From assembly GCA_024137785.1 (NCBI GenBank), contig JAHRHZ010000115.1, positions 189,111 to 253,110 of the forward strand: 64,000 bases of DNA. Reading direction: 5' to 3'. Both the position numbers and the translations under genes were made by a program. Under the pieces are notes generated by a model. The model made no database searches and was not told the DNA's origin. It saw only the letters and a program-made list of their open reading frames with translations. This DNA is from Ginglymostoma cirratum (Eukaryota). Shown here piece after piece: positions 17,569 through 64,000 of the stretch (position 1 is its first letter; every line of letters starts with the position of its first letter).

Positions 17569-18405
<837 letters not shown>

Positions 18406-36500: not shown

Positions 36501-37450
36501 CAGCTCCAGCGTACCTCCCTGCCAGTGTATTAGACCCCTTTCAATACAGTTGCAATCTGAGATAACAAGGTGTGGAGCTGGATGAACACAGCAGGCCAAG
36601 CAGCATCATAGGAGAAGGAAAGCTTAACGTTTCGGGCCTAGACCCTTCATCAGAAAGTTGCAATCCGTCCTTCTTAAACAGGTCACTTCTACTCCAGAAG
36701 AGATTTGAACAATCCAAAACTGTGAATCTTTTCCCCTTCTCCTCAGCCACGCACTCATCTGCTCTATCTTCCTATTTTACCCTCACTAGCTCCTGACACT
36801 GGATTTAATCCAAATATTACTGCCCTGAGGACCTACTTTTTAAATTCCCACCTAACTTTCTATATTCTTTCAAAATCTCCTTCTTTTCTCATCCTATGTC
36901 GTTCGATCCAAAGTGTACAAAGACCTCCCGCTGGTTCCTCTCGACTGTAATAATATTCAACATCCTCACCGAGATATCATTGATAATGGCAAAATGCTAT
37001 TCTGATGTCTCGTTGTCGTTTGCAGAAACATCGATCTGTGCCTCTGACTAAAGAGTCTCCTATCACAATCGATCACTGGGATCCTGAGGTACCCGTCGTT
37101 ACAGTAGAGCCAATCTCGGTAGCAGAAGCCTGGCTGTCAGGGCCAAAATCCCCCGAGAGTCCATCGCCTCCTACATTTTTCAAAACAGCATATTTGTTCG
37201 AGATGGTGATAGCCACAGGAGACTCCTGTACAACCTGCCTTCTACTCCTATCTTTCCTGGAGGTAAACTATCTGCCTGACTGCATTTGTGGTTTTTCTAC
37301 CTTCCTGCAACTGCCATCCATTACACGCTCTATCTCCTGTAATTCCTCATTGCCTCTAACTGCTGCTCTTACCGATTCATGCAGTCTGAAAGGATTCACA
37401 AACAAACACACTTCCTGCAGACACAATCATCAGTAACATGGAAACTTTCT
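33530..37450 (-). mobile_element. near full-length degenerate CR1-like LINE (ORF1 esterase + ORF2)
   Basis: Minus strand: ORF1 SGNH-like VIGDSLVRGTDRCFC (~37010-37070), KLNCIYFNARGL (EN start), RT DSQHGF..YVDFSKVFNKVP, KFVDDTKIGG, 3' tail at ~33530. Confidence 0.85.
36558..36655 (-). mobile_element. 98-bp PLE-terminal insertion with hammerhead motif (36626-36653) and 10-bp TSD
   Basis: TSD AGTTGCAATC at 36548-36557 and 36656-36665; CTGATGA-A-GGGTCTAGGCCC-GAAA-CGTT. Confidence 0.8.
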
Positions 37451-37829
37451 CTTAGACAAAAGACAATAGACAATAGGTGCAGGAGTACGCCATTCGGCCC
37501 TTTGAGCCAGCACCACCATTCATTATGATCATGGCTGATCATCCACAATCAGTATCCTGTTCCTGCCTTATCCCCATAACCCTTGATTCCATTATCTCTA
37601 ATCTCTCACATCCGACAGGAAGAGCACTTTACTCTACTAAAGGCCATCTTTGGGCCTTAATAGTCTAAATACTCAGAAAATAGTAGTCTTACTACTCTAA
37701 AAACACTGCTCCAGGCTATCATAGTACCGATGTTTTATATTTTTAAAGTCTAATCAAGAGACAGATCTCGATAGAAACATATCATCAAAGAAGAATCCAT
37801 TCTACTCACTATAATAGATTTACAAATAA

Positions 37830-38260
37830 GGACAGGTGGGGGGAAGGAGTAAGGAGTAAACCATAGGTGATTGGGGATAGAGCCCAAAGAGAAAGAAGTA
37901 CTGTTGGACAAAGGAGTGAATAACTATCCAGCTAGGAAGGTGAACAGCTATTAAAAGCTGTTAGTGGCCGACAATTGGTTGTGTGTAATAGTAGACTACG
38001 TAATAGCAAGGCCTGGTATGTGGGGTTGGTGTAAGGAAGTGGGAGAGGTCAAGCCCATTGAGACCAGAAGGTTGCAGGGTCTCCAGGCGGTAAATGAAGT
38101 GCTTTTGTTTCATCTTGTACTCAGTTTCTCTGGAGCGCTGCAGCAAGCCTGAGGCAGAAATATTGACCAGGGAACGGGGTGGTGTGTTGAAGTGGCAATC
38201 CCAGTTTAAGTCCCATGTCCTTACCCCAACCCCACATACCAGGCCTTGTTATCACATACA
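37830..38260 (-). mobile_element. Penelope-like fragment (second family) with short inverted arm
   Basis: KQKHFIYRLETLQPSGLN (PLE ORF C-terminus); 38210-38255 is an inverted copy of ~38000-38040. Confidence 0.65.
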
Positions 38261-39202
38261 AGAAACAGAAATTTCTCGAAAAGATCAGCTGGTCGGGCAG
38301 TATCTGTGGAGATAAATCAGAGACTTGTTATCATGTAGCCTGTTACTACATACAACCCATTGTTAAGAGCTAACAGTCAAACAGAGTTGCGTTTTTGTGG
38401 CTTCACGGCTGTGAAGTGCTGGCCGTGATCTTGATGTGCACGTCCGCTGGTCCTTCCAGGTGTTGGGGCAAACAGCAGATGGAGTACGATTCTTTATTAG
38501 CCAAGACGCAGTGTTTACAGCAGGAAGGTTATGTTGGAAATGTATGAAATGTTGGTTACTCCGCAGCTAGAGTTTTGTGTGTAGTTCTAGTATCCACCTT
38601 ACAGGAGAGATTGCACTGGAAAGGGTGCGATGGAGTTTTACCAGATTTTGTCTGGGTTGGAATGTATAAATAATGAAGAGTGATTACATTGATTGGGATT
38701 ACTTCCTTGGAGCAGTGGAGACTGAGGAAGACATGACTGAAATGTATAAAATTATGAGAGACGTAGAGAAGAAGGTTTTACCATTGGTAGTGGATTTACT
38801 GACCAGAGACATTGATTTAACGGAAGGTACAGGAGGCTTAAAGCGGGTGGGAAGATTTTTTTTTCACTCAGAAATCGGTGAAAATCACTATCTGTAAGGG
38901 TGGTGGAGGTGGAACCACGCATGCTCTTTCAAGATGTATTTCGATTAGTACTTGCAATGCCTTGCCAACAAGGCAAATTTGAATAGCTAGACGTTCATTT
39001 TGACTGACACAGACTCGATCAGTCAAAGGATTTTTTTTTTCTTTCCATGCTATGATCGGGACTGTGTATTCAACGCTATTTCAATCAATTAAACAAAAAT
39101 CATAGAACGTGAGTAAGTGAGTACCACTAAGTCAGTGGTTGATAAAATCTAAATGATTAATATAAACGCAATTGAAATATTGGTGAAACTTAAATCTTGG
39201 TC

Positions 39203-39250
39203 TTTATTTAAATCAATAATGCATAACATTGTGAACGCTATAACTTTATT
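39203..39250 (-). promoter_or_regulatory. candidate poly(A) signals for membrane IgNAR mRNA
   Basis: AATAAA on the minus strand at 39245-39250 and 39203-39208; alternatives at 40526-40531 and 39681-39686. Confidence 0.3.
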
Positions 39251-41245
39251 ATATTTCAAGCACATACTGTGAAAGACTTTAAGAGCAACAACTAATATTT
39301 TTAAAAAAGCAACGCATTAGCATGACAGACAAATTTCACGTTGAAAACAAAACTTTTGAAGGTCCTTAAGAAGCAGAGATAGAACAATTTAACGTAACTA
39401 TGCATTATTTCTTACACGTCATTATGACAACTCATTGCAACAGCTGTCATGACAGAGCACATCGTGAAATGATCTGGAGCCGATGTGACAAAGTGGGTAA
39501 CGTGAAAATTGTCCTGCTCGAAGTCAATAGTGCAAGAAACTAATCAAACTGACTCATTCTCGCTGCATCTCTGCTACAGTGAATGCAAAATCTATTCCAC
39601 TTTAGTATTTGAATCAAATAGCACTTCATTCTTGTTTTCGAAAATAAAGTTATCTAAGCTTTTGTAGCAAAATATACGTTTTTATTTCCAATACGTTTTG
39701 TGGAATTACAATAAGAATACTCTGATGTAAGCTTTCACAGCTTGATCAAGGTATCATTTTCCATGGCCTTTGAATTATATTTCAAATCATCTGAGTAGAG
39801 CCTCCTGTGAGATACCTCTCACGAGAAACAACTGGACCAGCCAGATGAACACCCTGGCTGCAAATGTAGATCATATGCTAGAAATTCAGAGGCAATAAAT
39901 GACTTCCTGCTTCCTAATATCTACCCACTGTCGTGAAGTCAGAGATTGAAAACAAAAGGTCATGAAACACTCTACACTTGCCTGGATGAATGCAGCTCCA
40001 AGTCAACAAACAAAAATCCGCTTCGTCCAGTAGGAGGAGTCCGCATCGTTGTCAGCGAATCCACTCCCTCCCAGAGACACTGACTTCACGAAAAACGTGC
40101 TGTGGTAGCAGTTTATGCAATCTACAGGATGCTCTGCTGTAAGTCTCCAAACCTATCTTAGAAACACCTTCTAGAACCGCAATGTCTATTGCCCAGAATA
40201 TCAAGGCTTAGAGATTAATGTGGATACCACCAAATGGAGCCATCAGGACTAAGTATCGCGCTCAATAATTTTAAAGCCTGCACTCCAGCTTCCATATCGT
40301 TTACGCACCTACAACACTCCAAGTCCTGTCATGACGCGAGTTGCTTTCAGCACAGCCAACCCACTTTCTTGCAGTCATAGCCCCATTACCACCTACCAGG
40401 CTTTTCTTCTTCCCCAGCCAAATATTAACTTTGTCGGCCTACTCTCTCTCTCTCTCTCCCGGGCGTGCTCAGTTTCTCCACAAATTTACGCTTATGTTTC
40501 AGCTTTTCCAGCGCGGCGGTTTTGTTTTATTTTTCACCAAATGGAAGATCCCCTCAAGCCACTCTACATCCTGATTTGCAACGACATTCACGGTCACTGA
40601 GTCGGCATCCTATCTTTCTAACAGCACAGTGGCTGTGATAACACAGAAGGACTAAAACGATACAAAAACTCAGTTCTCAAAACGTTTCCCATGGCAGTTC
40701 AATGAAGTGGAATGAATATTCATCCGAACAGAAACATGCACATTACTGTAAAAATTTTTTAAAAAAAAGTTAGAGCCTTTTCATCTTCTACTGATCAGGA
40801 CTTGTCAAAAACAACATACAATACAGGGGACTCCATGCGCAAGAGAACAGCGCTGATTCTTTCCGAAGTGGACCTTGATTGTTAAAGAATTGCAAAGAAG
40901 AATGCACCATTCAATTTAATTGGCAGTTACCAGCGAGACTTCATCAAAAGTTATTGGACACAAGATTGGTCAAGATGTTGTCCTGTGAAATGATCCAGCG
41001 GGAGGCTATTGCCAATTTTGTTGCGTTGAACCATAGTTTTTGGATTACTCCAACATGCATTTCTCTCTATAGTTAATGCTGAGAATTCTGTAGTGGCCGG
41101 GGGAAAACAGATCCATGATGAAAATTCATCTTCCGTACTGTTTGCCACAAGCCAATGATATGTAATCTATTCTACATCTGAGCTGAGCGATGGTCCGGCA
41201 CATGTCTTGATTTGAGCACGAAAGCAAATTGTTGCCAAATGGCTG

Positions 41246-41254
41246 TTAATTCAT
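41246..41254 (-). CDS. IgNAR: probable IgNAR TM2 exon coding part (M-N-stop), followed by 3' UTR
   Basis: Strong acceptor ttttacttttccccttcag|ATG AAT TAA; phase 0 matches the TM1 donor; two-codon TM2 exons are typical of Ig heavy chains. Confidence 0.55.
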   Translation of the reverse strand: MN

Positions 41255-41896
41255 CTGAAGGGGAAAAGTAAAACTTTGTGTGTGAGTATCAGAGAGAGTG
41301 AGGGAGATGATGTACATTCACGTTGAATCTTCAAAAGCAAGAACAGGAGGAAAAATAAAGCCATTGTCTGTTATGATCGTTTTAAATAATGAATCACAGT
41401 TTAGAAGTAATCCATTTGGCCCATCAATTAGCCCGAAATCTTAGCAACGATAATTTGCTGTTTGCTACTCGTCTTCTTCCCCAATTAGCTCCCCATTTTC
41501 TTCCTTTTGAGGTATAAATTAAATTCACATTTGAGTGTCTACATTGAATCTGCCTTCTTGGCGATATGGGGTCGGTTGCAGGCAGAAGTTGGTGTGTTCT
41601 AGTTTTATACCACTCTCTGCTTGGGAAATGTTACCTCATATTGCATTGCTTGCACAGAAACTTAAATTGGTAATCTCTTATCCTCGATGCTTCTAACAAT
41701 TAAAATTTTACTCCCCATCAGCAGCATGGACTTGACTGAAGCGGAATAGCTTACTTCTGATCATAGGTCTTATAGTCTTACTTCGAAAATAATTATTAGA
41801 TATGTGTTTTCCTTTTCAACTTGGCTTTTACAGAATAGAATCACCGACTTGTTCAATGGCGACGCTGCTGTCAAGCTCTTTTACCTTTTGAACTCT

Positions 41897-42205
41897 TATA
41901 GAATCCCTACAGTGTGGAAGAGCCATTTGGGCCCAGCGAGTCCACAACAACCTTTTGAAGAGTCCGAAACAGACCCAGCCTCCACACTTTATCGACATAA
42001 CCCCGCATTTGCCATGACTAATCCACCAAGCCCGCACATCCCTGGACTCTATGGCATAATTTAACATTGCCAAACCACTTATTCTGCATATCTTTGTACT
42101 GCGGGAGAAGATTAAAGCAGCAGGCAAAGAAAGGAAATGCAACCGCCACACATAGGTAGAATCGATCGCTGTGCGGCATTAGTGCTAATCATTGAGCCAT
42201 CGTGT
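41897..42205 (-). mobile_element. V-SINE (HE1-like), degenerate
   Basis: Head, V-domain and tail similar to 14550-14848. Confidence 0.65.
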
Positions 42206-42938
42206 TAGCCTAGATCTCTCTGATGCCTTCCCAAATGTCGTATATTGTGGCATTAGATTTGGATGCGAAACACTACCTGATATTGAATGAACGTTCTGAG
42301 TAAAGTTCCACGTAGCTTCGCACTTCACATTAGCTTTCATTTTGGTACATAACGATTGCATTCTCCATAGTTCTAATAAGCCTAAGTGTATGTTGCTCCA
42401 TGTTTCATTAACCACACTTTCAAGATATCCTGTGTCCTCCAATTTTGAATCATAAGATGGGGAATACTAGAGACAAACGGGATAGTCTGTGCTGGGGCCA
42501 GAAGGAGGGGTGTGGTCTTAAATGAATATTTCTCATCAGCATTCACAATGAGGAAAAACAGTTAAAGATTTCAGTTGTGAGGTTCTAAAGCATGTAAAGG
42601 TTAGTAAGTAGGAGGTACCAGATGTTTTAGCGGGCACAAGGGTGAATAAATCTCCAGGTCCCGGGAAGAAATATCCCAGGCCGCTACGAGAGGCAAGCGA
42701 GGCAATTAATGGGCGGAGATATTAAATACTTCCCTGGCCACAGGGGAAGTGCCAGATAACTGCAAGATAGCTAACGTGGTTCCTTTGATCAAGAAGTGCA
42801 GCAGGGATAGGCCAGGTAATTACAACCTAGTGAGTTTGACGTCTGTGGTGGGGAATTTGTCGGAAAAGAATTCTGAAGGACAGGACTAATCAACTCTTGG
42901 AATAGCAATTGTTTGCGCCACGAGAGGCCGTGCCTTAG

Positions 42939-43315
42939 TGGGGGGCGATGGCCTAGTGGTATTATCACTGCACCTGTTAATCTAGAGACCCAGATAATAT
43001 TCTGGGGACCCGTGTTTGAATCCGAACACAGCAGATGGTCAAATTTGCATTAAATAAATATCTGGAATTAAGAGTCTAATGCAGACCATGAGCCCATTGC
43101 TGGGGACAGCACATCTGGTTTAATAATGCCCTTTAGAAGGAAACTCCCAACCATATAAGATCTGGCCTCCATGTGACTCCAGGTCCACAGCTATGTTGTT
43201 GAATCTTAACTTCCCTCCAGGCAATTAGGGATGAGCAATAAATGCTGCCTGGCCAGTAATGCCCTCATTACTGCCCCAAGTAATGCCCTCATCATCATGT
43301 GAATGATTTTTTTAA
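42939..43315 (+). mobile_element. Deu-type SINE (SacSINE1-like)
   Basis: Same family as 16568-16873. Confidence 0.65.
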
Positions 43316-43629
43316 AAATCAGGAGAGTGCGCTTAACAGACTGACCACGGTGATGCCAGGGTGCAGAGTATTGGCCTGAAGACGGGTTTTGTAGACCAGG
43401 CTTGTTGGTTGGAAGATGAAATAGTAACTCTTCACCCTCACTGAGCTAACTGAGCTAGTTGGAATATTCATTAGTGAAAAATAAAAGGGGAAAACTGATC
43501 TTCAGCTCAATGCATCGAGATCATGGCTTAGTTAACAACAGAAAAGTCATACTCCAAACACGAATGCTGTTGGAAAACATTTACACACAACTGCTCTGAT
43601 CCACAGTAGCAATCTAACGCAAAAGGGGT

Positions 43630-43768
43630 AAAGGAGATAAAAGGTACTGCAGATGCTGGAGAATCCGAGATAACAAGCATGGGGCTGGATGAACACAGCA
43701 GGTCAAGCAGCATCATAGGAGCAGGAAAACTTGACGTTTCGGGCCTAAACCCTTCATCAGAAATGGGA
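43630..43768 (-). mobile_element. 139-bp PLE-terminal insertion with perfect 14-bp TSD
   Basis: AACGCAAAAGGGGT at 43616-43629 and 43769-43782. Confidence 0.85.
43733..43760 (-). ncRNA. minimal hammerhead ribozyme motif, intact core
   Basis: attt-CTGATGA-A-GGGT TTAG GCCC-GAAA-CGTC-aagt; helix I AUUU/AAGU is possible. Confidence 0.65.
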
Positions 43769-45278
43769 AACGCAAAAGGGGTGCCAATTAGAATTATAAA
43801 CCTTTAGATTAACGCATATTAATATTAACTTCTTAAAAGATGTGGGCGGAAGTGCATATAATTTGATAAGCCTTTGATCCGTTTTCTTCTCAGAGATTGT
43901 GGGAATAGTATTCTTCGTCTTGCTGGTGGTCTTACATTCTATTGGTTTCCTGTTTTTACTCTTGAATAACTAAAAATTTCACTTTGTGGTTCATCACCCA
44001 CGCATTCTATTTGAAAATCTCATGAGGTTATGTGGATCTCAAACATGGTCATAGCTTAGGGGTTCCAAAAGAACTTTTGATAAGGTCCCACATTATGAGT
44101 TTGTGAAGAAAATTAAAGCACACTTGACTGGCATGGATTGAAAAACGGTTAACAGGCAGAAAGCAAAATAGAACATATGGATCATTTTCAGTTGACAGAT
44201 TTTGCCCAGAATGGCAGAACAGGCACAAGGGCTAAAAGGCCCGTTACTGCTCTTGAAATCCTATGTTTCTACGGAGTTTCTGTTCTCAGCTCTGTCTCTT
44301 TCAGTTGTATTCAACATAGCACTCACTTCCGGTTTTTATTAGATATTGGAATTTAACTGCCATCTTATACTGGAATGTGAATTCCATGTTGAAATTCTCA
44401 CTTTGATTCCGCTTATTACATTTGTTGATGTTATTCTCAAATAAATCGCCCCCTTTTATGAATTTCGTGAAGTAAACATTCTACCATCTCTCTCGTTAGT
44501 AATTTCCTTGCACTTCGTGGAATCCGAAATTCCAACTTCTCTGAGACATGTATGTATGATTTGTGTACTATCATCATCCAAAGTTCCTCCGTATCAGTAC
44601 TATCAGTATTTATTCATAATGATCCATCCTTCAGAAGTCAACGTTTCCTAATTTATTTAGAGTGCTCCATGTTCGATTGCAAACTTTTGTTTGCAGTTCA
44701 ACTTTCTCTCTTGGTCTTCCTTTCTAAGGAAAGTTGAATTCTACTCAACTCAACGTTTTCTATTCTTGCTATATTCTGATTCTGATGTTACATTTCATCT
44801 CGTTTGCACACATTCTTACACAATTTCATCATATTGGGAGACTTGATGATTTGGTCAAAGAACTGTTAATAAAGCCAAAATACTGTTAGTGCTAAAAATA
44901 TTTATCAGACATGGAGAATGCAGGAGTAACTTTTTAGTTCTGACAGCATTTGTGGATAGACAAAAATAGTTAACTATTAGTGTTTGACCATTCTTCATAA
45001 TTTTCCTCTCAAGCAGAATCATTCCAGACTCCAAAAGTTAACTCATGTATTCTCCACAAGTGCTGTCAGACCTGGTGATGTTCTTCAGCATTCTCTTGGT
45101 TTCCTGTCAGCAATCGACCTTCAAATGATCTTTCAAAACCAATATGATAAATATCATGAAAGAAACGATTGATATATTGGATTACATACTTCATAATTTG
45201 TATTTCGATACATCTAAAAAATAAGCTGAAGCTTCTTGCAATTTTTTAAATCCGAATTCAATTCACAATTGTTGTTAC

Positions 45279-45433
45279 CTTAAACAGGGTTATACAAGTG
45301 CCGTAGAATATACTGAAAATAAACATGATGGCGAAGGTGATTATAATTGATACACAGTTGGAATCTTCATCAGAAAATTCTAATCCTTCTTCAACCTCAT
45401 AACCTTCTGGTTCTTGACTCACTTGAGGGATTT
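45279..45433 (-). CDS. IgNAR: IgNAR transmembrane exon TM1
   Basis: tttag|..(E)IPQVSQEPEGYEVEEGLEFSDEDSNCVSIIITFAIMFIFSIFYGTCITLFK|gtaac: acidic spacer plus antigen-receptor TM motif (TF..F..S..Y...T); phase 1 in, phase 0 out. Confidence 0.9.
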
Positions 45434-45569
45434 CTAAACGTAATAGAATGACATTGTTACAAATAAAAATAATGTGATTTCCAAATAGCTGCAAAGAGGT
45501 TGCAAAAGAATTCAGAGCAAGAATAAGCAATGTCGAACATTCATTTGGTTCATCCATTAACCAACTCAA

Positions 45570-48150: not shown

Positions 48151-48639
48151 CAACCACATTCTTTAGAATTAACAGAATGAAAGATGATTTTGTTCAAGCT
48201 TATAATGTGCTAACAGGGCAGAATAAAGGCTCTTGTAATTCGATGGCAGTGTCTTTACCTCTGAACCAGAAGTCTTGAATTCAAGATCCAACTAGTTCAG
48301 AGATATGCCATACAGGAGGTTAAAAATCTCTAACAGTTCAGGAAAGTCTAAATGCAGGCTATTGACACTTCAAGGCGGCTCTAAAATAGGTTGTCTTGGT
48401 CTCCAGATACAGTCTAACTCACGTAAGACTTAGTCGCAGACAGCAACACCTTCGAAGAGTCCTGAAAAGCCTTCCATGTTGTGGCTCTATTACAACCCTT
48501 TGCACCATAAAATTATGCGGGCGATTGTTGTTCAGCCAGACAATATATCATATACAATATAGTTAGCTTAGACAGAAAAAAAGCCTCGATGCCGGTGAGG
48601 CCAATCGTTTCTATTACTTCAACGCTTGTAATGTTTACC

Positions 48640-48885
48640 GGAGGCGATACTTAATGGTATTATTGCCGGAATGTTAATCCAGAGACTCAGGTAATGTTCT
48701 CGAGTCCCGAGTTTGAACCAAGTTGCAGCAGATATTTGAATTTTAATTCAATAAGAATCTGGAATGAGGTGTCTAATAGTGACCATGATACCATTGTCGA
48801 TTGTCACTAACGCCCTTTAGGGAAGGAAACTGCAAGCTGGAGACCCAGAGAAATGTGATTGAATCTTAACTGCCCTCTGGACAAT
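48640..48885 (+). mobile_element. Deu-type SINE, partial
   Basis: Same family as 16568-16873. Confidence 0.6.
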
Positions 48886-50337
48886 GCATACTCACCACAC
48901 CAACAACGTTCTCGTAAACGTGACTGCATAAAAAAAACATGGTGCCCTGCCTTTAGATGTTGGAGATGTAACTCTGATGGAAGTACTGCGTAATGTACGC
49001 CTGACGGCAGCGCAGTACCCGTGATTCGATTCCCAACAGAGTTTGAAGAGGACGTTGTCCACATTGGGATTCGTCTGTCCCTTCAAGCTGTGGTTGCTCT
49101 GCACTTTTTAGAAAGTGTCCTGAATCGTGATCGCTTCCACCTGCAGATTTCATTTTGGCTGTTGAGCGTTTGGCTCAAGAAAATGGCGAATGGGGTGGAG
49201 CGAGACCATGTCCTCATTTCACATCATAGGAGACTTAGAAGAGATTCGAGATGTCACTACTGTGCTTGAAATTGGTGATTGATAAGATGTGAGATCAAAG
49301 GAAAACAGAGGATCTATACGTTCATAGGAAAGGTCAGTCAACCCGCAACATTATCTTGGCTTTCTCCACACAGATGCTGCAACACCTGCTGAACATTTCC
49401 AGCAATTTATGTTTTTGTTCCACGTTGTATTAGGATAAGGACATTTTGCTGATTTAACCAACTCTGCCACTTGATAAGATCATGACATATCTCATTATTT
49501 CCTCACTCCACATTCCTACCTGACACCCTTGCTATTTGTGAATCTATCTAATAATGTATTTTAATACAATAAATTAACTCACGTCTGTTTCTCTCTGGGG
49601 AAGAACTCCAGGCATTTGCAACCCTCAATGATTTCTCCTCAATGTCCATTTTAATTGACAGATCGCTAATATTAACCTAATTTTAGCCTTTACCGCAGCG
49701 GAGGGAAATTCTCACACATCCCGTTTCCTATAAATTCAGCAGTAATTATTTTGAACTCCAAATAACGCAGGCCAGTCTTGACCATTCTTAACTCTAAATA
49801 CAATATTATCTCACCCTCCCGCCTCCCTCACCTTCAGTTATCTGATGGTATGACCTTCAGTCACCTCCTGTCAACTGATTCTAATAGAGGTCTACAGGAC
49901 AGCAAACGATCCTTCAGCCCATCAAATCTGAGTTGATCACCTATTGGTATTTCCTTTCATCTCATTCCCCATGGGTTAAACGCAAATTTTTCAGAGTCAG
50001 TACAACTTCCTTGAAAGCAAGCTTGAATCTGGCAGCAGAGCAGAAATGGACACGTGTCGCGATATTTTATGGAATGGACATCATACATAAATGGATTCAT
50101 TTATAAATTATCTGCACGAAGATTAAATGCATGCAAAACATAAATATAGATATGGAAATCAGCAGATTTGTTTTTTTAAGTGTCCATTTATTGCAATTAT
50201 ATGAGCCACGTACGGATGAAATACAACTTTCTGTTCATCACCAAGTCACAAAACCCTTCGACATATGTTTAGAATTACTGTAGTGTCAGGCAGGACTAAG
50301 CTAATTCTTTACCATCAGATTCTAAGCACATTTACAT

Positions 50338-50360: not shown

Positions 50361-50485
50361 CTACTCCCTAAAATGTGGGCAAGTGTTTGCTGATCTGGAG
50401 AGTTCTGTGACAATTGATGAATCAGAAACATCTGTGAATTCCACCGCTGAGTTAAATCAATTAAGCAATTATTCAATGCTGGTAG

Positions 50486-50868
50486 TTATACGCAAGGTTT
50501 TAGACTATCAGTTAGAACAACAGACACGTTAAACAATGTAGGTTTACCCCGGAAATTATTTGTACTTCTAATTAAGTTTCTTTTAAGGGACGGGTGTCCC
50601 ACTAAACAGGAATAAGTAACTCCACTGTTCCACTCTGCCGCGGTGACTTGCAATCTGCTGGCAATGGAATTGGAATCCCCTTCCTTCCTGGTGATTGGTT
50701 GGCTCAGCGAACCCGAATCCAAAAGCGTGTCATTGGCCATCCAAGCAATGTAAATATCAGCTGGATAGAAACCAGTGGCGAGACACACTAGAGTAGCTGT
50801 CTTCTCAGTTTTAATCTCATCCGCTGATGGAGGCAGAACGTAGACTTTCGGAGGATGCATTTGTCCAA
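50486..50868 (-). CDS. IgNAR: IgNAR constant exon C5 plus secretory tailpiece (internal donor after 50548 for the TM form)
   Basis: ctttgcag|(V)GQMHPPKVYVLPPS..ATLVCLATGFYP..WMANDTLLDSG..YSCLVGHPSL..G|GTAAA; tail GKPTLFNVSVVLTDSLKPCV* with an NVS sequon and penultimate Cys. Confidence 0.95.
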
Positions 50869-51554
50869 CTGCAAAGAGAATGAGATTTATTACACAGAGG
50901 CTATATTTTGGTTAATTCTCACTTCCAGTGCCCTCTGTTATGAAAAATTTTGTTTGAACATTGAGAAACAGCTTCAGATCCATGCAAGTTTACTTGTATC
51001 TATAATACTGCAAAGAACTGCGGCTGCAAGAGATCTGAAGCAAAGACACACACACACACAAACACACACAAACACAATTGATGGAAAATTTCAGCAGGTC
51101 TGGCAGCATCTGTGGGGAAGAAAAAGCAGATCTTATATTTTGAGTCAGGTGACTCTTCAACAGCGTTCTGATCCACTTCCTGATTCATACGAGGAGGTTC
51201 CGTCAGGGACATTGTGGTTCTTCAACTCTACCCATACATATTTTATGCTTTCTAACTCTATCATTATTTTTGCTATCGATATAATTCCATTTCTTACTAA
51301 CAAGGCAACTCCGCCTCCTCTGCCCGTCTGCCAGTTCTTTTGATAGGATGTGCATCCTTGACAATTTGATAAATAGCTCTCTTTGGCAGCACATATTTGG
51401 GAGCACAGTGCGCGTCAAATTACAAAGAGAAGTCCACAGCAAAAAAGTTCTATTCTATGTCAACAATTAACCGACAAAAATCGCTTTAAAAAAGCCGCTT
51501 TGCTTCCAATGCATTTAAGATGCCAAGTTCTAAACTCAAAGATTCTGACACAAG

Positions 51555-51663
51555 ATAAAAACCGAAAGATCTGAGGAAGGGTCAACAGCCCCGAAACGTT
51601 AACTCTGTTTTCTCCTTACAGATGTTGCCAGACCTGGTGAGCTTTTCCAGCAACTTTGTTTTT
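51555..51663 (+). mobile_element. PLE-terminal insertion (second family) with hammerhead motif 51571-51600 and 14-bp TSD
   Basis: GATTCTG(A/G)CACAAG at 51541-51554 and 51664-51677; CTGAGGA-A-GGG..CCC-GAAA-CGTT. Confidence 0.75.
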
Positions 51664-51814
51664 GATTCTGGCACAAGTCCTGCTTGTCGCAGAAGAGGTT
51701 GGTAACCAAGCCAAGCTAAAGACAAAAGTGATACATCTGATGGCATACTCTTCGGTGTCGCATTGACCGAAAATCATGGACGATATGTTCAACATATGCA
51801 ACAAAATATCTTAC

Positions 51815-52135
51815 CTATGAGTTTTCTGGTGGATGATTTCACTGGAGTTGGCAATGCGTTGTTCTCTACGAAACAAACATATTCCACCCCACTGTTCCAT
51901 TCCACGGTAGTGACTTGGAGTTTGCTAATGATGGCCAATTTACTTCCTCTCCACTCAGGCTTCTGAGTATCGACTCCTTCCGTCCTCCTGCTCCCATCCA
52001 CTTGCCAGGATACGCTGATGTTTTCCAAATCAACGTAGAGAATTTCGCAAACAACAGTAGCAGTCAGCTGGTTCCAAATCTCTTCAAATGAAGGCTTCTG
52101 TACATTGACAGAAATGACTGCCTCGTGACAATCAG
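51815..52135 (-). CDS. IgNAR: IgNAR constant exon C4
   Basis: tttcaag|(A)DCHEAVISV..FEEIW..ATVVCEILYVDLENISVSWQVDG..EYVCFVE..G|gtaag; 321 nt, phase 1-1; extra N-terminal Cys as in IgNAR C4. Confidence 0.95.
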
Positions 52136-54384: not shown

Positions 54385-55630
54385 AACATGAGGTTAGACA
54401 GAGGGTGGTAGTGGATGGTTGCTTTTCTGATTGGAGGCTTGTGACCAGCAGTGTGCTACAAGGATCACTGTTGTGTCCACTACTTTTTGTCATTTATGTA
54501 AGTAATTTGGATGTGAATATAGGTAGTGTGGTTAGTATGTTTGCAGACGACAACAAAATTAGTGGTACAGTGGGTATTGAAGAAAGTTACATCAGAGTAC
54601 AAAAACAGAAATTGCTGGAAAAATTCAACAGGTCTGGCAGCATCTGTGAAGAAAAAAATCAGAGTTGATGTTTCGGGTCTGGCGACACTTCCTCAGAACT
54701 TGTTCTTCACAGATGCTGCCAGACCTGCTGCGCTTTTCCAGCAACTTCTGTTTTTGTTTCTGATTTACAGCATCTGCCGTCCTTTTGGTTTTTACCACAA
54801 AGTACAATGGGATCTTGATCAGATGGGCAAACGGGCCAAAGAGTGGCAGATGGAGTTTACTTTAGATAACTATGAGGTCCAGCATTTTGATAAGGCAAAT
54901 CAGGGCAGGACTTCTACACTTAATGTTAAGGCCCTGTGAGTATTGCCGAACAAAGTGACCTTAGGTTGCAGGTTCATAGTTCCTTAAAAGTGGAATCGCA
55001 GGTAGACAGGATAATGAAGAAGGCGTTTGGTACGCTTACCTTTATTGGTCAGTGCATTTAGTATAGAAATTGGGAGGTCGTTTTGCAGCCATACAGGGCA
55101 TTGGTAGGCTACTTTTGGAATATTGCGTTCAATTCCGGTCTCCCTGCCCCAGCAAAGATGTTGTAAAACTTGAGAAGGTTCAGAAAACATTTTCAATAAT
55201 GTGGCCAGAGTTAGCGTGTTTGAGCTATGTGGAGAAGCTGAATAGGCTGGGGCTAATTTCCCTGGAGTGTGACCAGAAAGAGATTGATAAAATCATGAGC
55301 AGCATAGATCTGGTGAATAACCAAGGTCTTTTCCCAGGATAGGAAAATTCAAAACTATACGGCGCAAGTTTAACGTGACAGGAGAAAGATTTGAAACGGA
55401 CCTGAGGGGCACTTTTTTCACACTCAAGGTAATTTGTGTATGGATTAAGCTGCCACTGTACATGGTAGAAGCGACTATAATTACAACACTTAAAACAGAT
55501 TTGGACAGGTACATTAACAGGAAACATTTAGAGAGATGTGGGCCAAATACACGCAAATGAGATTAATTCAGTTTGGGGTACCAGGTCGTCATGTATAAGT
55601 TTGACTGTGGTCTGTATCTATGCTGTATGA
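54385..55630 (+). mobile_element. CR1-like LINE 3' part (interrupted by a PLE hairpin)
   Basis: QRVVVDGCFSDW..QGSLLCPLLFVIY..MFADDNKI, LEYCVQF, 3' tail. Confidence 0.85.
54603..54791. mobile_element. palindromic PLE-terminal insertion with degenerate hammerhead (54667-54696, minus)
   Basis: Arms ~54601-54653 / ~54704-54756 are reverse complements; degenerate 16-bp TSD at 54587-54602 / 54792-54807. Confidence 0.8.
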
Positions 55631-56251
55631 CTTGGTGCTTTGGCAGTTCCGGTGCATTATTTACTTCTGAATGTTCTACTCAGTGGTCATCACAACTGAA
55701 GCAGCAGATCAGCATGTATCCGTGGTGAAAGTCTGAGAGCGCCATTCAGTTCTGCCCGTAGCAGAGGTGAAAAGAACGCCTCAAGTCAATGGGGGACCAA
55801 GTTATGTTTTCTTAGGTTGTGTACAACAATGTGAACTGTAAAATTACACACCTTCAAATGAGATAATTCAGTATTCAGCAATTATTGCATCACAAATCTG
55901 ACGTACAATTTCACGACAATTGTAGAGGCTGAAATTTAGTAACAGTGATCCTTTGTAATAGCAGTGTTTATCCTGTGACATACCCACCATTCATCTCACT
56001 CTGCCGTATATTTTCTGTAGGTTATCCTCTAGAACGTCAGGAGCAGACGTTATCTACCTGTGCAAAATATATCGGCAGGATATGCTGCAATGGACTCATA
56101 ATGGTCAAATTCATTTTGGCTGTTATTAGAAAATGCACTCCAAGCACTTTTCTAAAATCCGAATTGAAAGCAGGCTTTTCTTGCTGCGTGATAAATCTGA
56201 GGGCATTATCCCCGACTCCAAGGCCTCCAAACACAACAAGATGAGACCAAT

Positions 56252-56348
56252 GATAACAAGCGTGGGGCTGGATGAACACAGCAGGTCCAGCAGCATCATA
56301 GGAGCAGGAAAACTTGCCGTTTCGGGCCTAGACCCTTCATCGGAAATG
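56252..56348 (-). mobile_element. 97-bp PLE-terminal insertion, perfect 15-bp TSD, mutated hammerhead
   Basis: CAAGATGAGACCAAT at 56237-56251 and 56349-56363; core reads CCGATGA...GAAACGGC. Confidence 0.85.
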
Positions 56349-57058
56349 CAAGATGAGACCAATAAACTCTTTGCAATCTTGGGAAGGCACCTACTGTTGT
56401 ATCAAGTTTCACTGCTTCCCTGTCACCAACTCCCTGGTACTGCGATGATTTTATTGAAAACATGCATTTCTGCAAAAGTAAATGACCAGAAATAGAAGCT
56501 AGAATTAAAATGGTCTGAGTAGCAGATCATGGCATTCGGCGCCATTCATTTACACGTTGTATTTTCTCCTATGTGTGAATCTGTGTAGCAGAAGATTTTG
56601 CTATTTGACATATATAACTTGGAACAAATGCATCACCGATAACGTGTTCATTTTTTCCCCCTCGTCTATCAGTCTTTAATAGATTTAAACTGGAAAATAA
56701 GGAGGAAAGCTAACGACTTGCAGTTTTCTCCCTTAACATTGTATAGAGCACAATCTCTTTGAATCTATTTAGCACTGTTTATACGCAGCACACAATCGCC
56801 AATTGCCCCAATGAAGTTAGACAAATCTTCACCGGCGTACTATAGGCTTCTCACAAAGTTGGCCGCTATGCATACTTTGACGGTGACTCATTTACTTGAC
56901 GAATTACTGCATGTGAATTAAGGCCATTAATGGAACTAATCAAATCGTGGTACTTCTAGCATGTATAGTAACCTAACTACGTTTCAGTGCTACATTCAGA
57001 CGTAAATGTCTGAATGCAACACTGATCATATGAACGTACTGTGAGAAACTGTTCTTAC

Positions 57059-57376
57059 CTTTCAGGCTTCTAATAACTCTTTTCTCGTTGGATTGTGAAG
57101 GTAGATGAAAAGCAGCACAGGAATATCTTGCTCCTGTGTTCCAATCCGCTGCTGGTACTGTTAAGAGGCTTCTGGCGCTGAACGTCTGGTCTTGTTCCAG
57201 AGCAGTGGGCGAACTGCTGATATTCGAGTGCAAAACAGTCCCATCCTTCTCCCAGGTTATGTTTATTTTTTCAGGATAGAATCCGCTTATCAGGCAAGTG
57301 AGAGTAGCAATTTTGGTATTTTTAACTTCTTCTGGTGATGGAGGCATGAGATGAACCTTTGGCACAACTGGCATGG
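57059..57376 (-). CDS. IgNAR: IgNAR constant exon C3
   Basis: ttacag|(A)MPVVPKVHLMPPSPEE..ATLTCLISGFYPEKINITWEKD..PTALEQDQTFS..YSC..G|gtaag; 318 nt, phase 1-1. Confidence 0.95.
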
Positions 57377-57451
57377 CTGTAACAAAAGTTTAAACCATAT
57401 TAGCCTTCTCTCCATTGACATTCCAAATAATGCTATATTTTCTTTACCTAC

Positions 57452-57754
57452 CCTTTGTCTTTCTTGTTCTTTTTGTAACCACAGTTGATGATTGGCTATC
57501 GTTGGCTGAACAAGTATATTCAACCCCTCGCTCCCATTCCTCCACGCTGCTTGTTAAGCGCCCAATGGTCACGTACTGGTTTCCTTCCCTTCTACCCGCC
57601 TCAATTTGAGTTCCTTCAGTCCTTAACTGTCCATCAACTGTCCAAGTAATCACAACCGCAGTGGGAATTGTAGAAACTACCTCACACACCAGCGTGGCAG
57701 TCTTATCGATCCAGGTTTCTTTTAGCGTAGGTTCTCTGAGAAATACGATGAGAT
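57452..57754 (-). CDS. IgNAR: IgNAR constant exon C2
   Basis: ttggcag|(D)LIVFLREPTLKETWIDKTATLVCEVVST..GNQYVTIGRLTSSVEEWERGVEYTCSA..G|gtaggt; 303 nt, phase 1-1. Confidence 0.95.
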
Positions 57755-58465
57755 CTGCCAATGAGAAACCAGAGATTCGGATTCGGCCAGCTTTAAAGAT
57801 GATGGTTGTTGAGGTTTGGCTGTGATTTAATATCACTGATAATTGATTTGACGAGAACCATTATCTTTCTTTAGCGCAGGCGATTATTGAAAATGAAACA
57901 ATATTTTAATTGTTTTCCCAGGTTTGTTTTTCTTACGGCATTACTGATTCAATTACACATCACTTTAAATCTCTTTCCTCTTGTAATTTATTTTCTTATA
58001 CAAACTACAACAGCTTCTATTCTCTACAGCATTAACGTGATTTTGAAAACATCCTTCAAATCTCTCTGCCTTCTTCACTCCAAAAAGATCAGTCACAAAT
58101 TCTCCAATCTGTCCTCACAACTGATATTTCGCATTCTGGCTTGGTCGAGATTGTTCTGATCAATTTTTGCTCAAACATTAAATGATAAAATCCAATGTTA
58201 ATTAACTCCCTCTATAATGCATATAATTTTTTTTTATAAGCCAAGGCTTCAGATTCACTGATTCTTCCTGTTGAAATATTTCCCATCCTCTTACTGTCGT
58301 TTTTCACTGCGTCATGAACTAACACTACTTCACTCATTGGACCAGTGAAAGAAGACATTAAATCTTATTGATAAGTTAAAATGGCAATATTCCAACTAAT
58401 CCATACCGGACAAACACATTGAGAGTATTCACTTGCAAACCTGTAAAATAGGCCAGTTTCCTTAC

Positions 58466-58786
58466 CTGATGTGAACTGAATTTCTTTTCGCTGATTACTG
58501 TTGGTTGAAGGATGAGTTACTTGGCAACTGTACACATTACTGCTGTTCAATTCCCGCAAAGGTACTTGGAGAAAGCTTATAGAACTATAGGCTCCACTTG
58601 TCATTTTCACTGGGGACGTAGTTGTAATGTTTGAATCTACACGATGGTTGTTTTTCTCCCATTCTATTTCAATGGATTCTGGATAGTATCCGCTGATCAG
58701 ACAGGCGAGCTGCACAAATCCTTTTCCCTTCAGTTCGTCAGTTACAGAATAGAGGAGACTGACGGCTGGAGAAGTGCGTTGTGACG
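58466..58786 (-). CDS. IgNAR: IgNAR constant exon C1
   Basis: ttgtag|..SQRTSPAVSLLYSVTDELKGKGFVQLACLISGYYPESIEIEW..TTSPVK..YSCQVTH..SNQRKEI..G|gtaag; 321 nt; motifs match IgNAR C1 as recalled. Confidence 0.92.
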
Positions 58787-60554
58787 CTACAATTACAAAG
58801 AATGATATTTAGGTTATTCTCATTATGCCAGAGCTCAAATATCTCAGTCAACATCTAAACAGATCAAAAATCAAACGATTATTCTTATTTTGAAGCCTGG
58901 AGCACTCAAATTTTCTGCAGCATTTCTGACATAACAATGGCCTGACATCAAATGGAATTTCACTTGCGCGGATGTCAAAGAACACTGAATAATCAAGTAT
59001 GACTTTTTCCATACGTTCAAATCATCATTTGCGTTAGGATCCATTGTTTTGTCTATTTAATATTGTGTTGGTATTTGACAATATATTGGAGTATTTTCAC
59101 ACTTAGAGACCAAATGTTAATGCAAAATATAACAGTTTTGGTTTGATCTCAGTGCCTGGGAAACCTCTGCACAAATAGACAAATTTGAAAAGTTTGCGTC
59201 TGAAATTAATTCCACTTGAAATGCTACGAAGAATTCATCCACGTTCAAGAATATATTACTGTGTTATGCGCTGCATTAGAAGTGTTTGTTTGTAGAGCTA
59301 GTCAAGTCCTTTCCACGAAGTTGACAAAAAATTTTAAAAAAACAAACATTCGTGGAAATTCTATCGTGGTTGCTCTGGAAATTGTGGTGGTGAGCTGTCT
59401 TATTGAATCAGTGCGTTAAATTAGTTTGGGGTATCCACTCCCAATTGACGTTGGCGTGCTAGTTCTATAATTTTGACCCAGCAACACTGAAGTAATAGAA
59501 ATATATTTGGAATTCAGGATGTTGAATGCCCTGGAGGGAAACTTGAAAGTCTTGGTTTTCCGACGTCTCCGCTAACCTTGTTTTGCAAGATGCAAGCTGT
59601 CGTGTGTTTGAAAGTACTGCCTGAGGAGCTTTGTTGAATTTCGGCAGTGCATCCTGTAGCTGGTATATACCGCTGCGACAGTGCATCAGCAGTGAAGAGA
59701 GAGAATAATTATGGATAGACTGCCAATCTCGAAGCCTGCATTTCCGTGAACAATGTCAAGCTTATTGAAAATTTCAGGAGCTATCCTTATCCATTCAAAT
59801 GGGAAGTTTTCCGTCATTTTTCTGCCGTGTGTCTTCTGGGCTGAGCAGGGTCTGCGGTCTCAGGAAAACAGCTAAACTTACCCTGTTTGTTCTTGGCATT
59901 TCTTGGAAGAGTTTCAGTTGGGAAGCTGAAGCTGGAAGGAAATCTAGTGACATTGTATGGTGCTCTAACAGTAAAAGCGCAGGATTAGCAAACTAAAGGA
60001 TAGAGTAATGATGGGACATGGTCATAGACATCGCGGCCGCAGCACCGCTCGCCCCCTCCCCCACCTTCACCGCACAAATGCGTGTCCACAATTTAACTGT
60101 AATTAACATGCTAGGAAGCCGAATTAGCCCCTTTAAAGTGTTGTAGTTTACCAAAACCTGGCTCAACTATGTCATTTAGCAAAAGAATTATCTCATCCTG
60201 ATGTCTTCCCCATTCCCAAGTAATGTCCTTGACTCTTAAATCTCCTTAAATATGGTCTAGCGATCCTCACCGTCCAAAAGAAGTTAGATATCAATGAAGT
60301 GTAATCGGGCTGGGCCTTTCCGAGATGCACATAACATAAAAAGGAAAACGATTCTATTTGCAATTTGGTACGATGACAAAGTTGACAAACAAACCTTCAA
60401 ATAAGAAACTATAACATTCCAATTTCCAAGTGAAGGACAAATTGCGCCAAGCAAGCGATGTGAAATTTCATTGTAGCATTGCAGCGACTGGGATCAGTTA
60501 TTCTTTCTGTTAATTCAAATAATACCAATCCACACCAGTAATCACCAGTGACAC

Positions 60555-60905
60555 GGGGATGTGATAGGTTAATAGTATGGTCGCTAGGCTGTCAATGTTG
60601 AAACCCAGTTAAATTTCTCGTTACACTGGTTTGAATACTGCCATAGCAGATGGAGGAATTCGAATTCAATAAATATCGGGTATTAGGAGTTTAGTGATAA
60701 CCATGAAACCGTTGCTGATTGTCAGGGAAAAGAAAACCTGTTTCATTATTATCCTTTAGGCAAGGAAAGAGCCGTCCTTACCTAGTTTGTCCTGCATTTG
60801 ACTCCAGACCCACCGTAATGCGATTGCCACTTAACTGCCCTTTGGGCAATAAATGCTAACCTGGTCAGTTACACCCACCTCCCGTGAATGATTTTTTTTT
60901 AAAGA
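60555..60905 (+). mobile_element. Deu-type SINE
   Basis: Same family as 16568-16873. Confidence 0.6.
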
Positions 60906-62532
60906 AAATCAGCGGAATTATTAGTTTTCTCCATATACACTAAGAACACCCAAATGCGCATTGTCATGATCTTCCAATAAGTGTCTACTTCTGCAAAAAA
61001 GTGTTCCGAGGGCTTGCCTCCAAAACATAGCTGATAAGCAGCAATTTCTTTCAAGTAGTCAGAGACCATTGTCTTCTGTCTACATTGCAAACTCCATCCC
61101 TAGACACAAATTACATGAACATCCGAGCGCCTTCTTAAATTAACCATAACGTTTACAATCTGAATGATCTATTCGACAAAGTGGTAACTTCTAACGCATA
61201 ATTATGTCATCACACTTCCACAACTCTCGCCTAGATTCAACCACTATGAACTTTAAAAGAAAAAATCTAGATTTTGACAAGTCCAATCAAGCCATGTCTG
61301 GCATCTTAGATACTATAACAAGTCATTAACGAATTGTTGGCCGCATCATTGTTTTCATTTCATGAAATCTTTATGACAGTGGGTCCTTGAAATTGTGAAT
61401 CAATATTTAGTTAGTGTCATTATGATACCTCTACCACACAGAAAATGAGGACGTAAATGATAAAGAAAGGGCGTATATTACATGAATATAAACTAGGAAG
61501 AAGCGGAAGAAAACATGATAATAAAATATACTACCTCTACATCGGTAGTATGCGCAACTCGGTGGTACAAAGTGATCTGGGGTGTTGTGACTGGAAACAT
61601 TTCAATTAGTACGTAATATAAAAACAACAAAAGGTGAAGACGGCAAGCATAATGTTGCAAGGGTCGTGAGACATAAATATGGAGAAGATTTACTGCAACT
61701 GTGCAGGACGGTGTTGAGAAAATACCGAGAGCTTTGTGCACGTCTTTGCCCCCTTATTTGAAAGAAAACTACTCAATTGCTTCAGGAGCATTTCAAAGAG
61801 TGATTCTCGAAAAGAAAGCATCATCTTACGAAAACAAACTTCATAACATTTTGGGAATGTTCAAATTGGATACTTAAATCTTTAGAGGACATCTTATAGA
61901 AACATTATGATTTTGAGGTGACTGGATAGAGTGAATATTCAGAATACGCCTCCTTTTGCAGAAAAGATGGTAACAAGAGACAACCCTTAAGAATATGCGT
62001 TCTTGATTTTAAAAGAAAATATGGAATAATTTGAATTCTACTCCAATTCTAACCTCTTCTGCATCACCAACTACCATATTCCCAGCATTTGTGGCTAAAT
62101 GAAGAGTTACTTTATGCGTATTAGCGGCTGAAATGCACTAATGGTGAAGCAAGGGGAAAGGTCTTGGAGATACGGCATTCTATGTTAAAACTTGTACAGC
62201 ATCTTTGAAGTAACTATTCAATTAGTGCAACTGACGTCAGTAACTCGGCCACAGTTCTGCCATTTTTCTTCTTTACGTTTCCGTGTAGTTTACCTTTGAA
62301 CGTTGTTAGTCAATATATTTTAACTAGCAGCTGGGGGACAACATTCAACATCTTGGCGACTCAATACTGAAATAAATATCTTCATCTGGTGTCTTCTCAT
62401 TTTGCTAATTATTTATAATTTCTATTGATTCGATAACAACTTTCTTGCTTTGTTCAAAAAGAAAGCTTTTCACTCATCGGTATGATGACATCGACTTAAG
62501 GTTTTAATCCATTCTATATTTGCACGAAACGT

Positions 62533-62753
62533 GAGCAAAAACAGAAGTTGCTGGAAAAGCTCAGCAGGTCTGGTAGCATCTGTGAAGAGAGAATCAGAGT
62601 TAACGTTTCGGGTCCGGTGACCCGTTCTGACGAAGCGTCACCGGACCCGAAATGTTAACTTTGATTTTCACTTCCAGATGCTACCAGACCTGCTGAGCTT
62701 TTCCATCAACTTCTGTTTTTGATCCTGATTTACAGCATCCGCAGTTCTTTTGG
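62533..62753. mobile_element. palindromic PLE-terminal insertion with hammerhead motif (62627-62656, plus) and 14-bp TSD
   Basis: Arms ~62536-62621 / ~62637-62721 are inverted; TTTGCAC(G/A)AAACGT at 62519-62532 and 62754-62767. Confidence 0.85.
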
Positions 62754-64000
62754 TTTGCACAAAACGTAACAGATTTTGTTTCGAGATTGTTCATTCAGTC
62801 TTAGACCTCGACAACACTGAAATTATTTGTTACCTCTTTAGAACTGAGGAAAGCTTTTATTTTCGTCTCTCAGAGTGGTGAGGGACATTCAAACTTTTAT
62901 CATCAGCGAATACTTTTAACATCAAGGTAGATTGTTTCTTCTTAGGGAAGGGACTCAAAGATTATTCAGATTAGATGAACATACGGAATTCCAACCAAAA
63001 ACAGATCGGATAGACTTTTGTTTACGATGCAGTGAAGATAGGGATTTAAATAGCCTGCCTATGCTCCGAATTCTCATATTCACGTTTCTTCAAATTTCTG
63101 CCTGCCGATGTCGCGTATTAGTTTACATTTGAAAAGCACTTGATACTACTTCTTTTGACTTTTGCTTTTTCACAATTCTCGAATCCAGCAGGACACTCAC
63201 TACAAACCTATGGGCTTAAAACTTGCTGACGTAATGCTTAGTAATTTCTCGAAGAACCTTCACTATCTACAGACTGACTGAATAAAGAGAAATTTCGTCG
63301 AAACTGTCGCTCATCAGGACCATTTGCGTGACTGTGCAAGGGAAAATAAAGCACACTGAGTGACAGGCGAGTGCTGATTTCTCAGAAAATGAAGTCTAAT
63401 TGGAATATTAGTTGCCATAGAATACATAATAAATGAAAACTAATTGGCAATCTATGTTACATTTTTAAAGCAGACACTTTGACACTGCTTAAAGTTTTGC
63501 CCTGAAAAATGACCTTCTTTGTCTCTTTTGAAGTCAGTGCTATGTACCATTTATTAGCCATACTTTTTTTTCATGTCTGAGTAAGTCTTTTTCCCTCCGA
63601 ACACTAACTTTAAAAATCTTCCCCAGTCCCAACTGTTGTCTTCTGCCCAAAGCTCTCATGGTTAGATCTCCACAATATTTAGCAGCAAAAGAAACAGGAA
63701 CTGTTTGCACTTTTGGTCTTGCCATCTCAGGACACGTATTACTTCAGCAGTGGGAGAGCAATGAAAGACTTCCTGTCACGGGGTGGTGTTGTTCAATGAA
63801 GACGGAATCAGCAAACTAAGGCTATATTGTGCAGTGTTTTGATGAAAGCGAAGTTAGTTGAAACTTACAAAGTACTTACAGGGATAGAATCGGGTAGGCA
63901 CACGTAAGATGTTTACCCTAGTTGGGGAATAGGGGGCACAATTCAAAAAAAGTAAGGCAGAAGCTCCACTTTCGAGATGAGGATTTGGTGTAAACTCAAT

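Follow-up and report, generated by a model that had tools for sequence, protein, structure and literature searches.

The question raised by a stretch of 64,000 nucleotides from Ginglymostoma cirratum (assembly GCA_024137785.1, contig JAHRHZ010000115.1, positions 189,111 to 253,110 of the forward strand; hereafter the window) is why many short copies of two repeat families start at nearly the same place, a few nucleotides before the core of a hammerhead ribozyme motif. The two families, A and B, are the pseudo-long terminal repeat (pLTR) ends of Penelope-like elements (PLEs). The initial annotation had listed six insertions, each lying between target site duplications (TSDs), and had argued that random 5′ truncation would not accumulate at one site in two families. 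Our analysis indicates that the pile-up of 5′ ends is a real, sharp and genome-wide feature of known elements.

Positions are counted along the ribozyme strand from the C of CTGANGA (coordinate zero), with minus values on the 5′ side, and any single aligned terminal-repeat piece containing sequence 3′ of the ribozyme is called an arm. The genome (4.36 Gb) was sampled by position: 11 large contigs gave 160 stretches, each of 10 kb and placed at round coordinates, and 630,883 (39%) of their 1,600,000 letters are N. Alignment to nine references drawn from long copies gave 297 arms, 170 of family A and 127 of family B, i.e., about 300 per Mb of readable sequence. Arms with alignments that stopped before +45 were dropped, 26 and 10 arms meeting N, a stretch end or a reference end were censored, and the 30 loci of a first genome search were excluded from all end counts because their query contained the junction. 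Apparent family A ends clustering at -247 were an alignment artefact (an indel in one reference) and were scored as read-through. The family B ends at -40..-9 (n = 7) are partly due to subfamily divergence.

Among the arms that reached the core, 55 of 101 in family A and 52 of 74 in family B ended at -8..0. The end rate per nucleotide at risk in family A was 0.0047 at +31..+60, 0.0090 at +1..+30 and 0.087 at -8..0, and it was 0.0016, 0.0013 and 0.0015 in three upstream intervals. The corresponding values for family B were 0.0037, 0.0116 and 0.114, followed upstream by 0.0124 and then, beyond -40, by 0.0012 and 0.0026. Had the ribozyme-internal rate applied, about 5.7 (A) and 5.3 (B) ends would be expected at -8..0, against the 55 and 52 observed (Poisson p about 1e-34 and 3e-33). 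The peak was present in older and younger copies alike, and loci picked with queries lying only 3′ of it also ended at -9..0 (8/29, 11/37 and 15/29, the window's own copies being partly left out); one of the 3′-only queries of the genome gave no matches. Instead of the smooth length distribution that the initial annotation had named as the outcome that would speak against it, the 160 stretches thus gave a sharp peak, and random 5′ truncation is indeed inadequate, with an end rate at -8..0 far above that of the flanks in both families. In both families the peak is just upstream of the core and not within it.

The 107 peak arms comprise 46 inversion junctions and 61 non-inverted arms. The peak ends are true insertion ends, because TSDs scoring at least 8 were found at 18 of the 61 non-inverted arms, far in excess of the 1.5% of shuffled pairs. 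The same can be seen in the window, where all six insertions are real. In the order given below, their TSD pairs are identical at 10/10, 14/14, 13/14, 13/16, 15/15 and 13/14 letters, and the element start or inversion junction lies 2-3, 8, 1, 3-4, 5 and 3 nt from the core C.

36548..36665, minus strand: family A stub; body 36558-36655 (about -2..+95), core C at 36653; 10-bp TSDs 36548-36557 and 36656-36665.
43616..43782, minus strand: young family A stub with tail; body 43630-43768 (-7/-8..+130), core C at 43760; 14-bp TSDs 43616-43629 and 43769-43782.
51541..51677, plus strand: family B insertion; 15-nt inverted far-tail piece 51555-51569 and then the sense arm 51570-51663, which starts at -1 (core C, 51571); 14-bp TSDs (13/14).
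54587..54807, both strands: family B head-to-head insertion; minus arm about 54600-54700 (core C at 54696), tailless, reaching -4; tailed plus arm 54705-54791, beginning at about +44; degenerate 16-bp TSDs (13/16).
56237..56363, minus strand: family A stub; body 56252-56348 (-5..+91), mutated core at 56343; 15-bp TSDs.
62519..62767, both strands: family B head-to-head insertion; minus arm 62533-62623, tailless, ending in the stem II region; plus arm 62624-62753 (-3..+126), tailed, core C at 62627; 14-bp TSDs (13/14).

The copy at 51555-51663 is a small inversion, in which the inverted piece, recognized as far tail by sequence comparison with family B 3′ ends, is followed by the sense arm. The core CTGANGA, which had been reported for all six, is found with intact boxes in five; in the 56252-56348 copy it has mutated to CCGATGA, and the triplet is mutated as well. 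As evidence, the six are a selection: the window has 18 arms, of which 7 end at -8..0, 8 stop within the core or 3′ of it, and 3 continue past the site. Family B-like copies that are older and more diverged lie at 44906-45096 and 49322-49422, and the arm at 45007 likewise starts at about -1. Two longer insertions are listed below, the first of which has an inverted arm that, as had been noted, halts within the core, at about +3.

40..669, both strands: older family A head-to-head insertion; minus arm 40-161 (+3..+125, with tail); plus arm 172-669 reading through the site from the endonuclease region.
11611..12883, both strands: long head-to-head insertion of family A; decayed coding region for the endonuclease at 11819-12208 (minus strand); plus arm 12384-12883 reading through the site.

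The coding part of family A places it among known elements. The region L014:2099-2425 matches the Pfam domain GIY-YIG (PF01541) with 24.0 bits (cut-off 22.6), and the decayed endonuclease copy of the window, with no Pfam match itself, is 87% identical to it. The linker before GIY-YIG reads C-x4-C-x2-C in many copies, and a CX2-5CxxC linker marks the Neptune and Nematis clades (PMC8557442). On these predicted protein features, family A is an endonuclease-containing (EN+) PLE with a Neptune/Nematis-type linker. Its repeat both precedes the front of the open reading frame (ORF) and follows the endonuclease; since it flanks the ORF on both sides it is a pseudo-LTR, whose sense strand is that of the ribozyme. 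The start of the long ORF is likely at about +165. The ORF-front pieces of locus L215 had no Pfam match, and a PDB search gave no significant match; the front contains a PKIHK...GRPIVS stretch that we take to resemble the N-terminal motifs of PLE reverse transcriptases (RTs). Family B would be placed as Penelope-like by its architecture and its similarity to family A alone (74% identity over 77 nt). Both families have the architecture of EN+ PLEs, with direct or inverted pLTRs, an optional tail of 30-40 bp and a TSD.

The anatomy of the ribozyme is that of a minimal type I hammerhead, with CUGANGA, stem II, GAAA, a palindromic remnant of helix III, NUH and a short helix I. The minimal hammerheads described in metazoan PLE pLTRs share with it CUGANGA, one unpaired base, stem II, GAAA, the helix III remnant and the short helix I (PMC4209133). 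In the window, an Rfam scan returned no hammerhead family match and three chance hairpin hits, and folding of monomers gave no support for a stable ribozyme fold (z against shuffles of 0.0 to +0.7 for three of four cores and -0.7 for one). These results bear on one mechanism offered in the initial annotation, a stall or template switch of reverse transcription at the folded, possibly dimeric ribozyme, to which a bound protein may be added. RT copies RNA from 3′ to 5′, and ends caused by a block at the folded ribozyme should therefore lie around +30 or within the motif; the peak is found 5′ of the entire motif, i.e., where the structure has already been copied, and helix I has only about 3 bp in a monomer that folds no better than shuffles. 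The end rate at +1..+30 is 2-3 times that at +31..+60 in both families, in keeping with some stalling, but about half of the internal ends (27/58 and 27/48) are inversion junctions. The share of stops is alike in arms that continue into the ORF front (6/13) and in the others (p 0.55), as a fixed roadblock predicts, and the anole ribozyme is protein-assisted (PMC11167929). Stalling also leaves without explanation the fixed-distance TATA-like box and the extra G described below, and we consider it unlikely. What survives of the proposal is that a template switch or a defined RNA end is involved; the stalling itself is disfavoured by a peak at -8..0, beyond the motif. Ends near the predicted ribozyme cut (+26..+30) were so few, 3 and 2 among the 297 arms, that cleavage products make no visible class of templates.

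The geometry around the peak resembles a promoter, as can be followed in one minus-strand copy of the window:

4604..4996, minus strand: family A composite (locus L191); pLTR +33..+126 continuing as ORF front up to +232, and then joined to a read-through pLTR at -102..+90.
4717..4725, minus strand: TATA-like A/T island, its first T 31 nt upstream of the initiator-like A; putative promoter element.
4690..4696, minus strand: initiator-like YYANWYY, its A (4694) at -4, in the middle of the pile-up; shares sequence with the 5′ strand of hammerhead helix I; putative function.

Both families have YYANWYY with its A at -4 though their upstream sequences differ. In family A, 68 of 82 read-through copies have the box TATTTAT, with a distance of 31 nt from its first T to the initiator-like A downstream; it is the only A/T run of at least 6 within 260 nt of the young family A reference. 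In family B it is TATAAA that lies 29 nt upstream of this A, in 9 of 13 copies. The textbook arrangement is a TATA box at -30/-31 and YYANWYY at -2..+5 (PMC4581360).

The letters at the junctions were read in a set of 250 cores, from which junction-query loci, window duplicates and one duplicate locus were excluded. A G stands before the templated start in 23 of 40 non-inverted peak arms, when about 27% would be expected from composition (p 5e-5). In full-length L1 insertions such an extra G is a mark of the full length and a sign of cap copying (PMC11702581). Among family A arms, a lengthened T run precedes the core in 32 of 95 that ended vs none of 82 that read through. These letters would fit the end of an RNA template. 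The explanation that we regard as probable is that 5′ ends pile up since the site is the capped start of the RNA, from which the RT runs off.

A defined RNA end could also come from processing other than the hammerhead cut, either by a nuclease or in a break connected with splicing, where helix I has its 5′ edge. The Penelope intron of D. virilis does end at the 5′ end of helix I (PMC4209133), and family B has a pyrimidine tract and a CAG ending at -3. Family A, however, lacks AG at -4/-3, and the family B stubs, which have no common upstream exon, mostly retain the G at -3 (48/60) and the A at -4 (39/60) that splicing would remove. A cut end would besides lack the cap that supplies the extra G, so that we judge processing distinctly unlikely. 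A cause at the DNA level seems very unlikely. Here the endonuclease would cut its own complementary DNA (cDNA) at ATT, or ends would be joined by A/T microhomology at the T run; the anole element prefers 5′-ATT-3′ (PMC11167929), family A has ATT at -4, and the T runs are lengthened at ended arms. Yet ATT recurs in family A at -34 and -30, where the A/T island is richer, and 2 ends fall in -40..-9 against 55 in -8..0; at the peak of family B there is no ATT.

The opposite ends of the copies are also fixed, at two sites, about +93 and +126, some 33 nt apart. A one-sided tail of 30-40 bp is known in PLEs (PMC8557442, PMC3846280), and that of Poseidon of Anolis carolinensis (PAc) has been traced to two internal RT start sites (PMC11167929). 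We found 49 head-to-head pairs, 48 of them uncensored; short partner arms are under-detected in these counts. Exactly one arm had the tail in 39 of the 48 (23.5 expected, p 4e-6), both arms in 1 and neither in 8. Both arms belonged to the peak in 10 pairs, one arm in 20 and none in 18. In the pairs of the random sample the tail-bearing arm often halts at +55..+89, soon after entering the part copied by its partner; these halts may reflect limited strand displacement on one RNA. Loci L288 and L289, 24 kb apart on one contig in opposite orientation and with identical junctions, are likely a segmental duplication and were counted once in the set of 250 cores.

If the peak is the RNA start, the copies could be produced as follows. 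Transcription would begin at about -4, at the initiator-like A located 29-31 nt below the TATA-like box in the upstream part of the pLTR. The enzyme would nick the target DNA and begin its cDNA at either of two internal positions that lie 95-130 nt from the RNA front; this short product would extend as far as the RNA end, where in some cases the enzyme would stutter on the final U run or copy the cap. If the cDNA is then joined to the opposite side of the target, the outcome would be a stub with TSD; if it is joined to a second cDNA, begun on the other target strand from the alternative start site, the outcome would be a head-to-head pair with one tail; or it could be extended by a template jump. 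The ribozyme would be located there as the first thing in the transcript and would not be needed to explain the ends. Internal priming has been shown in vitro for the anole element, with two internal sites near the RNA front, extension of both target strands and no need for ribozyme cleavage (PMC11167929).

The composites of ORF front and pLTR offer a view of the jumps. Among 30 loci picked by their ORF front, the front piece is joined directly to a downstream pLTR piece in 22; in 11 of the 30 the pLTR piece starts at -8..+4 and the end of the front piece varies from +258 to +770, with G present at several of these 11 junctions. Read in the direction of synthesis, the composites suggest that the enzyme arrived at the site, shifted to a different template position and carried on. 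A cluster of nine of the 30 loci (L191, L192, L199, L203, L211, L213, L217, L218 and L219) has the front at +232..+269 joined to the pLTR at -64..-260, jump or deletion points that perhaps reflect pyrimidine microhomology and perhaps query bias. A young composite at L185:8300-9060 (minus strand), within a 13-bp near-identical duplication, has both pieces starting at -5, the ORF-front piece first and then a stub with an extra G at the junction.

Several observations weigh against the capped start. The start at about -4 is a prediction from DNA. Each reference has YYANWYY in 4 places, and of the 8 letters of TATAWAAR the family A box fits only 5. The end mode of family A is -3 and not -4, with a spread of -7..0, and 43 of the 61 non-inverted peak arms lack a TSD scoring at least 8. 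The contrast in G is only borderline because control ends elsewhere also carry it (19/50 vs 23/40 at the peak, Fisher p 0.051), and across all family A arms it is 22/44 vs 28/78 (p 0.09). The N letters, 39% of those sampled, could conceal long copies unevenly. In Drosophila, an intron separates the ribozyme from the Penelope start, which lies upstream at a distance of about 120 nt (PMC2377424, PMC4209133), and the geometry of promoter and ribozyme seen here is therefore not universal. The site is read through by 42 of 101 family A and 22 of 74 family B arms. The simplest model predicted that arms continuing into the ORF front would nearly always stop at the site, and this failed, as 6 of 13 stopped and 7 read through. 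With read-through so common a single strict start is insufficient, and upstream starts, read-through transcripts or a seamless homologous jump are needed.

Such a jump is known from LTR retroelements, in which minus-strand strong-stop DNA is primed near the RNA front, a short cDNA is made up to the cap, and the promoter part lies upstream of the start. We put forward tentatively, as a possibility that we hold less probable than its opposite, that PLEs replicate by a similar strong-stop step, i.e., that they always prime near the RNA front, copy about 95-130 nt to the cap and then jump. A homologous jump to the 3′ pLTR would continue seamlessly, make every long copy and rebuild the TATA-bearing part, which is absent from the transcript; a jump elsewhere would give a composite with the ORF front, and the absence of a jump a stub. 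The primer is a transfer RNA in LTR elements and would be nicked target DNA here, where the homologous jump itself is only proposed.

The initial annotation had also considered that the transposing unit is a discrete small RNA starting at this site. As a non-autonomous RNA or retrozyme with master copies of its own, starting at -4, it would account for stubs that are uniform (about 95-135 nt), very numerous and TSD-flanked, and non-LTR retrozymes have been proposed to derive from PLE pLTRs (bioRxiv 10.64898/2026.07.22.740005). Against it, stubs and read-through copies are mixed in all four common family A subfamilies with no stub clade (175 arms), the nearest neighbour of a stub is a stub in a fraction of 0.44 vs 0.53 when shuffled, and arms that continue into the ORF front stop at the same site. 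Nor do unit ends lie at the cut site (3 and 2 ends at +26..+30), and a tandem repeat scan found no ribozyme arrays in the window. With no separate stub lineage this proposal was not borne out, and we consider it highly improbable.

Non-LTR retrozymes are, like the stubs, PLE-derived non-coding units with a type I hammerhead, but they form tandem arrays with a hammerhead in each unit, whereas the copies described here are dispersed, single or head-to-head, and without a lineage of their own (bioRxiv 10.64898/2026.07.22.740005). Identity with them was rejected, given the window without arrays, the single three-unit array in the 160 stretches and the lack of a stub clade. That array, at L131:1914-2230, is a local tandem expansion of family B with three 70-nt units (+5..+61) and an inverted arm.

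In other respects these elements are close to described ones. EN+ PLEs of the Neptune and Nematis clades share GIY-YIG and the linker with family A, and EN+ PLEs likewise have partial tandems, head-to-head inverted arms, a tail at one end and TSDs of 8-16 bp; a TATA box and an initiator-like word have been noted in the pLTR of Adineta Pen2a (PMC8557442, PMC3846280). The descriptions in these papers give 5′ truncation as variable, whereas here a fixed end 0-8 nt before the hammerhead is found in over half of the core-reaching arms. Inversions have been attributed to self-priming on an antisense template (PMC3846280); the one-tail rule found here fits priming from both target strands.

PAc shares the two internal RT starts that define the tail and the extension of both strands, and its hammerhead is not required and gives no reads at the cut site, a further likeness (PMC11167929). 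Its ORF starts inside the hammerhead, different from the likely start of the long ORF of family A, and the main text of that paper maps neither the 5′ ends of genomic copies nor the natural RNA start (PMC11167929). Thousands of solo hammerhead motifs have been ascribed to truncated PLEs, and the role proposed for the motif, self-cleavage with circles as template, predicts ends at the cut site (PMC4209133); here the ends are at the 5′ edge. Full-length and twin-primed L1 insertions share the extra G at cap-reaching ends, the inversions by priming on both strands and the switches of RNA template, but in L1 the poly(A) end is where priming occurs, and twin-primed arms have no sequence in common (PMC11702581), whereas here both arms copy the same 5′ 90-130 nt. 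A literature search found neither a fixed 5′ end before a hammerhead nor a strong-stop step in PLEs, although subscription papers and supplementary figures may hold it.

The window has other repeats as well. Arrays with an 84-nt period, on both strands and with many frame slips, occupy 1413-1752, 5438-5838, 9797-10847, 13250-13519 and 17540-18233, and we presume that they resemble C2H2 zinc-finger coding repeats. A large inverted pair, 30957-32341 and 34548-35926, has about 74% identity over more than 1.3 kb per arm.

The elements themselves are of a known kind, and it is the pile-up that provides a testable clue to how PLEs are copied, with the genome preserving, on a very large scale, the points at which cDNA synthesis started and stopped. 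How pLTRs are rebuilt in PLEs, and what the hammerhead does, have been described as open questions (PMC2377424, PMC8557442). Should the peak mark the RNA start, it would map the promoter of two families to the nucleotide, argue for uncleaved RNA as the template in vivo, and indicate a defined short intermediate, which could be tested in the existing in vitro system. The strong-stop step, if true, would account by one mechanism for the regenerated pLTR, the partial tandems and the tail, and would leave the hammerhead a bystander at the 5′ end.

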